From: a virus | Virus record (IMG/VR): IMGVR_UViG_3300026488_000019 | Span: 1-64,000 of that record | Reading direction: 5' to 3' (one strand) | DNA: 64,000 nt | Shown here: piece after piece, positions 24,177 through 26,173 of the stretch | Position numbering within the stretch: the first letter of the stretch is position 1 | How the letters are laid out: every line of letters begins with the position of its first letter | Position numbers and translations under genes: made by a program | Notes under the pieces: model-generated | Seen by the model: the letters and a program-made list of their open reading frames with translations, nothing else | What the model was told of the DNA's origin: nothing | Database searches by the model: none

Positions 24177-24463
24177 TCTATCACCCTAAACCAAGTTTGG
24201 TTGGAATTCCTAGTGTGTCCACAGTTATCAGGTTTAGAAGATACATTAACAGGAATGTTATCTATGGTAAACCAACTTAATCCATTATCTGTTTTACACC
24301 TACCATAGCAATGAATAGGAGGTTTAGGACAAGGAGGGTGGGAAGAAACATTATCTCCATTAGTAGCCACTGGTAAACCATCTACAGTAAACCAGTTCTG
24401 CTTAGTATCTACTACTTTCCCTCCAGCCTCATTAGGGTCTTTAAGCCTGCTTATATACATCAT
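24173..24463 (-). CDS. PAAR-like spike tip protein
   Basis: VDGLPVATNGD.V..H.PCP..P.H...CGH metal-binding pattern. Confidence 0.85.
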   Translation of the reverse strand: MMYISRLKDPNEAGGKVVDTKQNWFTVDGLPVATNGDNVSSHPPCPKPPIHCYGRCKTDNGLSWFTIDNIPVNVSSKPDNCGHTRNSNQTWFRVIE

Positions 24464-25008
24464 CTCTTAACCCAAGTAGCTGTAGAAGTTTTAACATAGA
24501 AGTCTCCTGCTACATCCCATACAACATCTTTAACTGATTTAATGTAAATAGTTCCATCCTTCTCAATCCTAATTTTTGAACCAGATGAATGATGGAACTC
24601 TACATACTCCTTAGCTTTATTTATCTTAAACCAATTATTCTTCTTATCCCTAAACCCATAAGTTTCAGGGTAGTCTTCATCAAATAAATGTTGATGGGTA
24701 GGAGTTGACTGGATTTCCCCTATGTAGTAAGGGTTATAAATAGAATCTTCAAACTTAACTATTACATAAGAACCTTTCTCTGGAACTGAAAAGTTAGAGG
24801 AATCAGACCTAGCTCCTAACAGGTTTGGTCTAATAGGATGAACAAAAGGTAAGTGTTTAGCTGGGATACCTTTCCATAAAGGTTTTATCATTACCTTTAT
24901 CCTCCCCAACTGGAGAGGGTCTGCGTTTCAGATAACCTCGCCTACCCACAACTTACTTGTTATGTCAAATTTTTCATCTTTCAAAGTATCAGCTAATGCT
25001 ATTATCAT
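24460..25008 (-). CDS. Baseplate spike gp5/gpV-like protein (182 aa) with in-frame UGA at codon 27
   Basis: ATG 25008 with GGAGG SD; reads ...LWVGEVI*NADPLQLGRIKV... into track ORF 24460..24909, restoring the OB-fold start motif; TGA at 24930-24928. Confidence 0.85.
24901..24918 (-). promoter_or_regulatory. SECIS-like hairpin downstream of spike UGA
   Basis: CCUCUCC-AGUU-GGGGAGG at +10..+27 after UGA, loop +17..+20. Confidence 0.6.
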
Positions 25009-26173
25009 TTTTCTTCCTCCACTTGGGGAAGGTTATATTAAGAGCTTCCCTATTCAGAGTTAAATCTGTTACAATGGATTTAGCTGTAAAATACCTACAA
25101 ATCTTAGTTATGATGTAGCTTCCTGTATATAGGTCGTAAAAGTGCTTTTGTTTAGAGTCTATGTCAAACAACTTCAAGTGGTCTAAAACTTGATGTTTTA
25201 TAAACCTACCAGTATATCTTATGTTTACTTCCAGTCTTGAAAAGTGCATTAAGTTAGAAAGATTCTTAGATTTAGCATAAACCCAATGCTTATGAACATT
25301 GGAAAAATCTACTTTTACATAATCCTTTAATCTCAGATGTTCTATATCGTAAATGGTTTTATTATCAGGAACTAATGAGTAGGAAAGTTTATTACTGGGT
25401 ACAATAGGTTTACAGCAGAGCTTATTTTCAGTCTCATTATAACCAGCTATCTTCTTGGTTGATAACTTATTGATAAAACCAGTCCTTGAGGTTACTTTTA
25501 TGTCTCCTTCAAAAATGAAATCCCTAGAGCCTAACTTTTCCTTTCTAGGGAAAGCATTCCAAGGTTCTTGTCCTACTATATAAGGTAAGGATAAACATCT
25601 AAATCTTCCAAAACTCGTAATTCCTATTAAGTAAAACTCTTCTTCAGATATATAAGAGTTGAGCCAAAGTTCATTTATAAACTTTCTGTTAGGAATGTTA
25701 TACTGAATCCAAGTCATTTTATCCCTAGAACTAGGGAGGACTTGAACTCAGGCAAAATCTTCTTTGGCTACCCTTTCTATAACATAGGAGGAAGGTTTAT
25801 CTTCAAAATACCTTATTTTGGATTTATATAGGTAATCAGGCTTTCGTAAAATACCTGATAAAACTACTTCAAAGGTTTCACCAGTTTTGGAATACTCCTT
25901 TTCTAAAACTAACAGTTTAGTAGTAATAGATTTGGTTTCAGTTTGACCTACTGTTACTATTATTTCAGTTTCCTCAGCTAACCACTTCAACAACTTTAAG
26001 TCGTCTGTTACAAACCTTAACTGAAACTCAGGTAAGTGGTTACCTGTTTTCTCTATTAGTAAGAAGTCTATAAAATTTTCTCTGTTTATAAAGTCGTGTT
26101 TTTCTATCGTTCCATCTTTCCTTCTTATTACAATAGTAAAAAGTAAATACTGCTGGTTTTCATACTTTACCAT
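24989..26173 (-). CDS. Baseplate hub (gp27/gpD-like, 394 aa) with in-frame UGA at codon 142
   Basis: Track ORFs 25748..26173 and 24989..25717 are in frame, joined by ...KEDFA*VQVLPSSRDKMTWIQ...; size and position between gp53-like and gp5-like genes fit a hub. Confidence 0.75.
25722..25737 (-). promoter_or_regulatory. SECIS-like hairpin downstream of hub UGA
   Basis: UCCCUA-GUUC-UAGGGA at +11..+26 after UGA, loop +17..+20. Confidence 0.6.

Follow-up and report, generated by a model that had tools for sequence, protein, structure and literature searches.

In-frame UGA codons followed by hairpins in the hub and spike genes of a deep-sea vent phage: probable programmed recoding, possibly as selenocysteine

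Results

Two neighbouring tail genes each contain an in-frame UGA codon

The DNA analyzed here (the window) comprises the first 64 kb of the 84,995-nt IMG/VR virus record IMGVR_UViG_3300026488_000019, a linear genome that is 96% complete by CheckV, has a GC content of about 33% and belongs to an uncultured phage from a deep-sea vent. Late genes lie on its minus strand, and two neighbouring ones, encoding the central spike of the tail and a probable baseplate hub, each contain one in-frame UGA codon that is followed by a hairpin at the same distance. In every relative examined, each of the two TGA-containing genes encodes one uninterrupted protein; assembly errors are excluded as the origin of the TGAs, and the hairpins are non-random and lineage-specific. 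We consider it probable that the two UGAs are subject to programmed recoding; insertion of selenocysteine (Sec) is the leading, albeit unproven, mechanism, with chances somewhat short of even. A preliminary description of this DNA had placed the spike start and the two UGA frames, had joined two open reading frames (ORFs) to the hub gene and had noted hairpins with loops at positions +17 to +20, and all of these details were verified on the minus strand.

The spike ATG at 25008-25006 sits 7 nt past the GGAGG sequence at 25020-25016, and from there the gene reads ...LWVGEVI-TGA(24930-24928)-NADPLQLGRIKV... to position 24460. The family phrog_430 ('baseplate hub subunit and tail lysozyme') matches spike residues 19-110 with an E value of 2.5e-17, and a profile of the spike family matches residues 9-111 of T4 gp5 (1K28, 1PDL, 5IV5; E about 2e-11) in an alignment that runs across the UGA site. 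Pfam family PF04717 reached 15.2 bits on the spike, which is under its cut-off of 23.8 bits. The N-terminal start of a gp5/gpV-type OB fold, G-x-V...D-P...G-R-V-K-V, is present. All nine spike homologues, which range from a sister phage to phages of Vibrio, Rhizobium, Thermus and Pseudomonas, align from Met1, and residues G23, V25, D30 and P31 around the UGA are invariant among the nine. Conserved residues between the UGA and the next AUG are D30, P31, R36 and K38. As the TGA lies within the conserved start of the OB fold, it must be decoded for an intact spike to be formed. Decoding is thus required by the data in the case of the spike UGA and is likely in the case of the hub UGA.

The hub gene reads ...KEDFA-TGA(25750-25748)-VQVLPSSRDKMTW..., whereby the ORFs 26173-25748 and 25717-24989 are united in one frame. 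Its nearest two relatives are 369-aa proteins that span 96% of the joined hub and have E at the UGA column, and in 25 of 28 isolated-phage records a single place covered at least 80% of the query. An exhaustive HMMER search with the hub over 1.84 billion representatives gave 417 proteins at E ≤ 0.001, the best 150 of which were inspected. Among these best 150 of 417, 148 were non-self and almost all of them single proteins of 345-420 aa; none of the 148 started or ended at the TGA column. The UGA column itself is variable (V/P/T/F...) across 90 homologues, with Gly in one of them, and between the UGA and the next AUG residue S149 is kept in 72 and D151 in 83 of the 90. In both genes homologous sequence therefore continues on either side of the UGA, as in bacterial genes with a selenocysteine insertion sequence (SECIS) inside the ORF, and a restart of translation at the next AUG would lose the conserved residues in between.

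Neither Pfam nor PDB gave a match for the hub family, and there was none to T4 gp27; matches among the PHROGs were phrog_25710 (function unknown) and, in 7 of 91 family members, phrog_350 ('tail protein'). From its position beside the spike, the upstream gene is probably a gp27-type hub. The label 'hub' of the preliminary description is supported by this place next to a gp5-type spike and finds no backing in a sequence match to gp27. At its C-terminus, the hub carries an extension of 13 residues (24989-25030) that is absent from relatives and overlaps the ribosome-binding site and start of the spike gene by 20 nt in a different frame. Coordinates of the features are collected in Table 1.

Table 1. 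Features of the hub-spike region and of the phage transposon gene. Positions are those of the window unless stated otherwise.
Feature	Position	Strand	Description
Probable baseplate hub gene	24989..26173	-	394 codons, one internal TGA; final stop TGA 24991-24989
In-frame UGA of hub	25748..25750	-	Hub codon 142
Hub extended hairpin	25704..25750	-	47 nt; lower stem of 11-12 bp from the UGA, internal loop with AUG 25717, then upper hairpin
Hub upper hairpin	25737-25732/25731-25728/25727-25722	-	UCCCUA/GUUC/UAGGGA; 6 bp; ΔG -6.8 kcal/mol
Candidate restart AUG, hub	25715..25717	-	30 nt past UGA; preceded by AGGGA
Central spike gene	24460..25008	-	182 codons, one internal TGA; gp5-type OB fold and short beta-helix, no lysozyme domain
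Ribosome-binding site of true spike start	25016..25020	-	GGAGG
In-frame UGA of spike	24928..24930	-	Spike codon 27; flanked in the OB fold by G23/V25 and the D30-P31 motif
Spike hairpin	24918-24912/24911-24908/24907-24901 (arms and loop)	-	CCUCUCC/AGUU/GGGGAGG; 7 bp; ΔG -10.6 kcal/mol
Candidate restart AUG, spike	24889..24891	-	39 nt past UGA; preceded by GGAGG; start of public gene call (143 aa)
IS605-type TnpB gene	L015 10472-11887 = G000 74472-75887 (outside the window)		OrfB_IS605 and Cas12f1-like TNB domain

The TGA codons are found in independent sequence data

The probable source run is a hydrothermal vent metagenome of 2018 and the sole run containing the whole tested stretch. Compared with positions 24300-26300, an independent Logan assembly of this run gave 0 differences at a depth of 13. 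From another study (2025), contig record 4 of X2 (242 nt) spans the hub TGA with 3 differences, and the two changes given for this run are G>A on the plus strand, so that they cannot have altered the TCA that represents the hub TGA on that strand. Contig record 14 of X4 (565 nt; 2025), likewise from a study other than that of the source run, covers positions 24860-24998 with 19 differences (86% identity). Twelve of the 19 differences are listed, and none of these twelve falls into 24896-24924 or 24926-24936, that is into the spike TGA and its hairpin; the seven unlisted ones appear to lie near the ends of the match, the listed ones being at least 35 letters and the TGA 68 letters away from the nearer end. 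The listed differences change 10 codons, seven of them synonymously and on both sides of the UGA, and the other three by replacement (I to A, S to T, E to K). Judged from this one contig with 12 of its 19 differences visible, the spike TGA seems to have persisted while about 14% of the nucleotides diverged, with purifying selection acting on this frame. The codons of the preliminary description stand in the source-run assembly of 2018, and among the 2025 data the X2 contig covers the hub TGA and the X4 contig appears to retain the spike TGA. No RNA dataset was listed for the stretch.

Hairpins of the same geometry follow both UGA codons

In both genes the loop occupies positions +17 to +20 past the UGA, i.e., the spacing of 16 nt is identical, and the base of the stem-loop lies 9-10 nt downstream of the UGA. 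In the hub, the hairpin forms the top of the extended hairpin of Table 1, which the preliminary description does not mention. The extended fold of the hub element (51 nt) has an energy of -18.4 kcal/mol (z -3.59), which was equalled by none of 200 shuffles. Windows of 48 nt starting from the TGAs fold with -12.1 kcal/mol (spike) and -20.8 kcal/mol (hub) and belong to the best 3.0% and 0.14%, respectively, of 33,980 windows taken from the genome. Only 5-8 of 24,770 sense codons (0.02-0.03%) are followed, at a spacing of 16 nt, by a 4-nt loop with G in its first two positions on a perfect stem of 6 bp or more. A simplified model of bacterial SECIS (bSECIS) elements demanded a loop of 3-9 nt with G in its first two positions, a stem of no fewer than 4 bp and a spacing of 16-37 nt, and such hairpins follow 1.8-4.7% of the same sense codons, the range being set by the energy cut. 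After the other TGA-ended ORFs of at least 80 aa, neither the strict nor the loose form was encountered (0/17). Under the loosest model, the joint chance of both hairpins is below about 2e-3, which agrees with the opinion, expressed in the preliminary description, that two nonsense errors with matching hairpins are unlikely.

The bSECIS model of Zhang and Gladyshev (2005), in the form quoted in passages of PMC13188914, specifies a loop of 3-9 nt whose first two positions include a G, mostly followed by G or U, an upper stem of 4-16 bp, a distance of 16-37 nt from the UGA to the apical loop and a minimum free energy of at most -7.5 kcal/mol. Both phage elements conform to it in loop size, stem, G then U in the first loop positions, spacing and, when 48-nt windows are considered, energy. 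The ending GGAUAAA, described earlier as shared by the two stems, does exist in both genes; it overlaps the 3' arm, lies 2 nt out of register between the genes and is encoded by conserved R-I-K and R-D-K codons, and as a common SECIS feature it did not hold up.

At the same codons, the hub hairpin is absent in the sister phage (L002) and in a further relative (L003), and no hairpin is formed from the corresponding spike codons of either. The 5' arms originate from replacements specific to the lineage, P-L-Q in the spike vs. P-K-K or P-R-K in relatives and V-L-P-S in the hub vs. F-S-T-L or F-T-K-K, and the 3' arms of both hairpins fall on conserved residues. Relatives are too few for a covariation analysis: one 86%-identical contig shows no listed change in the spike UGA or its hairpin, and the sister phage has neither element. 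Searches of IMG/VR with hub and spike peptides gave no close relatives, a search of JGI metagenome contigs with the hub alignment gave only the 88,755-nt sister contig, and blastn of positions 24000-27000 against isolated phages gave no match. A word-indexed protein search with the spike returned only its own 143-aa call, and as it missed even the 51%-identical L002 spike it carries little weight.

UGA is a stop codon elsewhere in the genome

The preliminary description had also held that UGA is a normal stop otherwise, and this is borne out. Nineteen of 104 ORFs of at least 80 aa end with TGA, some of these ORFs being spurious. Stops in real genes were sought by comparison, orthologue by orthologue, with the sister phage (G006; 88,755 nt with terminal repeats, collinear at 65-92% nucleotide identity and tRNA-free). 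Seven TGA-ended genes finish within 5 residues of the end of the sister orthologue, whose stop is TAA or TAG in four cases and TGA in three. Apart from the two TGAs, no stop interrupts a real gene in either genome. There are 404 TGG and 627 GGA codons, and the gain from readthrough of the other TGA stops would be limited to 0-27 codons. These data exclude that the phage is written in code 4 or code 25.

Several other explanations were considered and rejected. Genome-wide stop reassignment is at odds with two in-frame TGAs in real genes, at least seven genes ended by TGA and the lack of phage tRNA genes, and no phage suppressor tRNA was found. For bypassing as in T4 gene 60, the take-off codons GCC and AUC have no landing match nearby, and the part to be skipped is conserved coding sequence. 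Frameshifting is rejected since homology continues in one frame, and a function of the hairpins as terminators since no U-tract follows either of them.

Sec machinery is present in vent bacteria that share mobile DNA with the phage

No tRNA genes were detected in the phage, and neither SelB nor tRNA-Sec was found in its genome; decoding of the UGAs must consequently rely on host factors. An IS605-type TnpB gene lies in the part of the phage genome beyond the window (Table 1), and copies with 77-86% amino acid identity to it are found in metagenome-assembled genomes (MAGs) from vents assigned to Desulfurobacteriaceae, Desulfurobacterium, Candidatus Desulfofervidaceae, Desulfobacterales and Deltaproteobacteria. 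One 'Deltaproteobacteria' bin has about 10 TnpB loci. In all five IS605-sharing vent genomes, selB scored above its cut-off, tRNA-Sec was found with 77-83 bits and selD contains one in-frame TGA; a UGA-containing fdhA gene is present in three of the five. From selD and fdhA of the five genomes, seven vent SECIS elements were obtained, with spacings of 16-23 nt, stems of 6-9 bp, loops of 3-5 nt and energies of -5.6 to -11.7 kcal/mol. These elements do not align in register and were compared by their features, according to which they have the same form as the phage elements. In the Desulfofervidaceae MAG, a second full-length SelB-like gene is located beside a second tRNA-Sec-like gene (59.9 bits; G002:C15:3854-5833) in addition to the main pair, and these two genes may constitute a parallel UGA-recoding pair.

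Other features of the phage genome

The hub-spike module (window 23802-26292 compared with L002 10001-11842 of the sister phage) has diverged more than any other part of the two genomes, which are collinear elsewhere. It gave no blastn match and its proteins are 43-56% identical, whereas the genes on either side have a nucleotide identity of 65-92%, which suggests that the module was exchanged. A 96-aa gene after the spike (24173-24463) overlaps the TGA stop of the spike gene as ATGA; its extension upon readthrough would amount to only 2 codons. In the sister phage, the 96-aa gene 3' of the spike resembles a PAAR-type spike tip, as judged by eye from the sequence. The large terminase of the sister phage (G006:C1:36917-40200) matches the intact 621-aa terminase of the window (47186-49051) with 93-94% identity in two pieces separated by about 1.4 kb, as would result from insertion of an intron, an intein or a homing endonuclease. 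The family-A DNA polymerase of the phage (L015 16016-18712 = G000 80016-82712) has an N-terminal domain of the uracil-DNA glycosylase superfamily within the same 899-aa protein.

Discussion

Probable programmed recoding of two UGA codons, possibly as selenocysteine

According to our proposal, ribosomes translating the late mRNA would meet UGA-142 in the hub and UGA-27 in the spike gene, and with the UGA in the A site the hairpin would stand where the mRNA enters the ribosome. Some of the ribosomes would insert an amino acid and complete the full-length proteins. The reader would most likely be host SelB with Sec-tRNA(Sec), the hairpins acting as SECIS elements of the bacterial type, and Sec would then come to lie in variable surface loops of both virion proteins and would not replace a catalytic Cys. 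A low efficiency of decoding would be affordable, since few copies of hub and spike per virion are probably needed; T4 has three copies of each. Such inefficient decoding may even set the dose of hub and spike or tie tail assembly to the selenium state of the host. SelB as the reader, the nature of the inserted residue and the purpose of the arrangement are what we infer here.

To our knowledge, SelB-dependent Sec insertion is the only established bacterial mechanism by which a local hairpin directs site-specific recoding of a UGA, and it almost always acts at catalytic Cys positions in redox enzymes of the cell. Sec is the leading reading because newly evolved hairpins stand at a fixed distance from both UGAs and because Sec-using bacteria share mobile DNA with the phage. 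That hub and spike are both true selenoproteins, with Sec inserted by host SelB at two loop positions that have no Cys in relatives, is a tentative proposal that we hold with a little less confidence than the mechanism as such. If it applies, these would be structural selenoproteins of a phage virion with Sec not derived from Cys, and the two Sec residues may make tail assembly depend on host selenium or may form a selenium-based link between the two proteins of this phage from a hot vent. The idea of the preliminary description that the phage borrows the Sec machinery of its host is in part sustained, as the hairpins agree with a SECIS model, an intact spike requires decoding of its UGA and the phage is tRNA-free; homologues with Cys, which would be expected in addition, do not exist among those compared.

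Several observations speak against Sec. According to passages of PMC13188914, homologues with Cys exist for nearly all selenoproteins. Here, the spike UGA column is without Cys in all nine homologues (N, D, D, E, S, N, D, D, T), and so is the hub column in sets of 5 and of 90 homologues. The alignment proposed in the preliminary description to look for Cys or UGA at these columns has thus given no Cys, and the sister phage has sense codons and no hairpins at both sites, so that the support from relatives comes from one diverged contig with 12 of its 19 differences listed. As for the elements themselves, the spacing of 16 nt is the lower limit of the bSECIS range, the upper hairpin of the hub alone amounts to only -6.8 kcal/mol and falls short of the -7.5 limit, and the loops of all seven vent SECIS contain GG (GGUC twice, GGUCU twice, CGGGU, GGA, GGC) vs. 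AGUU and GUUC in the phage. An Rfam search of 24300-26300 with E values up to 10 gave six chance-level matches and no SECIS family. Both 3' arms are Shine-Dalgarno-like with an in-frame AUG after them and would also suit a restart of translation. With regard to the host, the IS605 link spans several phyla, is not recent and, at an identity of at most 86%, does not name the host. CRISPR-type matches were found neither in the five IS605-sharing genomes with window positions 20001-40000, which gave no DNA match there at all, nor in 30 genomes of the order of G001 with positions 1-20000 (together 40 of 85 kb), the sole match in those 30 genomes, 33 nt at 94%, being located in AT-rich coding DNA and not in a CRISPR array. 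Prophage relatives detectable with the hub profile are absent from 178 genomes of the phylum of G001.

How probable are the other explanations? Programmed readthrough independent of SelB, in which a near-cognate tRNA for Trp or Cys decodes the UGA, the hairpin stalls the ribosome or hinders release factor 2 and the low yield sets the dose as for Qbeta A1, is in our opinion unlikely, though it deserves to be taken seriously. The UGA columns are variable, polar and free of Cys, so that any residue would do, and all evidence that the UGAs must be decoded fits this explanation equally well. Recoding stimulators usually lie about 9-10 nt downstream of the recoded codon, and this is just where the hairpin base is found. 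With readthrough of a UGA in Qbeta, as treated in sections of PMC8310308, there is also a classical phage precedent. What readthrough without SelB does not predict is a G in the first two loop positions or equal distances from the UGA, and the short products, a 26-aa peptide and a 141-aa piece of the hub, would be useless. Besides SECIS, we are aware of no hairpin-stimulated readthrough in bacteria, although no search aimed at it was made. To recoding by a means that cannot be named we assign a chance slightly smaller still. Termination at the UGA followed by reinitiation, for which ribosomes would melt the hairpin that conceals a Shine-Dalgarno-like arm and restart at an in-frame AUG, 30 nt past the UGA in the hub and 39 nt past it in the spike, to give 141- and 242-aa hub pieces and a 143-aa spike, appears quite improbable to us. 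AGGGA-N4-AUG in the hub and GGAGG-N9-AUG in the spike do occur in or just past the hairpins, the public gene call uses exactly these starts, and the internal loop of the extended hairpin contains the hub AUG, an AUG in a hairpin loop being a typical layout for translational coupling. However, a spike begun at Met40 would lose the first two strands of its OB fold including G23, V25, D30, P31 and R36, a restarted hub would lose S149 and the near-invariant D151, and among the best 150 of 417 hub matches none of the 148 non-self proteins is split at the TGA column. Nor is a Shine-Dalgarno-like run with AUG specific to the lineage: L003 has GGAAGG...GTA ATG without a TGA, and Met at hub column 153, found in 22 of 90 homologues, is ancestral in part of the family.

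Two plain nonsense mutations, carried by a defective or helper-dependent genome or tolerated in a suppressor host, with coincidental hairpins, would explain why the TGAs are found in one lineage only and not in the sister phage and why no homologue suggests a special residue at either site. Such an origin is very improbable given the joint chance of the two hairpins (below about 2e-3 in the loosest model), a genome that is 96% complete, the intact state of every other real gene that was compared between the phage and its sister, and the recurrence of the TGAs in the 2018 and 2025 runs, that of the spike appearing to be kept across 14% nucleotide divergence with mostly synonymous changes. The least probable explanation, to which we attach hardly any weight, is a host that reads UGA as sense, as Gly in code 25 (known from Gracilibacteria) or as Trp in code 4, with a phage that otherwise fits either code; a remainder of about the same size is assigned to no explanation. 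The portions consulted of PMC10746230 describe phages that use the standard code although their hosts use code 25, the GC content of the phage genome is low (33%) and readthrough of its other TGA stops would add few codons (0-27). Against such a host, TGA ends at least seven genes at the ends of sister orthologues, four of which use TAA or TAG, and only 2 in-frame TGAs face 404 TGG and 627 GGA codons; Gly is seen in only one of the 90 hub homologues and in none of the 9 spike homologues at the respective column, the hairpins would be left unexplained, and the only link to cellular genomes leads to Sec-using vent bacteria with the standard code.

If recoding with Sec holds true, selenoproteins would have broader roles and a phage would depend on the selenium metabolism of its host in order to build its tail. 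If it does not, a new mechanism of hairpin-stimulated readthrough in bacteria would have to be assumed. In either case the signal occurs twice, in neighbouring essential tail genes of a phage and at positions tolerating any residue. Standard gene callers split or truncate both genes (public calls of 141, 242 and 143 aa), so that such cases would be systematically hidden in viral databases. No phage selenoprotein was found in the open literature searched, subscription journals being outside the scope of the search. In the 2026 review on prokaryotic selenoproteomes (PMC13188914), the words 'phage' and 'virus' do not appear, and the Sec passages of a 2021 review on recoding (PMC8310308) concern pox viruses and name no phage selenoprotein.

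Comparison with known recoding systems and with the T4 tail

As in bacterial selenoprotein genes with a SECIS inside the ORF, each phage gene has an in-frame UGA in a conserved ORF and then a 3' stem-loop with a small G(U) loop, and in the hub element lower stem, internal loop, upper stem and apical loop follow each other as they do there. The prototype of these genes is fdhF of E. coli. The phage differs in that its UGA columns are without Cys, that the sites are variable loops of structural proteins and not redox centres, and that it carries none of the Sec machinery. Nor is there a bulged U, which is present in the E. coli element according to an excerpt of PMC8659212. Glutathione peroxidases of poxviruses (fowlpox and molluscum contagiosum) are likewise cases of a virus using the Sec machinery of its host, and in fowlpox the SECIS lies within the coding sequence, as stated in the parts consulted of PMC8310308. 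In contrast to the phage proteins, these are captured cellular enzymes with a catalytic Sec and not structural components of the virion, and the viruses as well as their SECIS are eukaryotic.

In phage Qbeta, A1 is an essential low-copy structural protein made by readthrough of a UGA at a low rate, and Qbeta readthrough is treated in passages of PMC8310308. The internal UGA in a virion gene is the feature shared with hub and spike. Unlike in the present case, where the short products would be useless, the short product of Qbeta serves as its major coat protein, and readthrough there needs no hairpin further downstream. Stop-recoded phages, in which TAG or TGA is reassigned, often with the help of suppressor tRNAs, resemble our phage in having in-frame stops in late structural genes, as far as the accessible text of a preprint (10.1101/2021.08.26.457843) goes. 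Here, only two sites are affected, each with its own hairpin, no phage tRNA exists and TGA still ends genes. The arrangement of the tail genes recalls T4, in which the gp27 gene lies beside that of gp5. Whereas the phage spike has no lysozyme domain (182 aa) and the hub shows no sequence match to gp27, the OB fold of the spike matches residues 9-111 of gp5 in the gp5-gp27 system (1K28, 5IV5), and a gene of about 375-390 codons is located directly upstream, in the manner of gp27 beside gp5.

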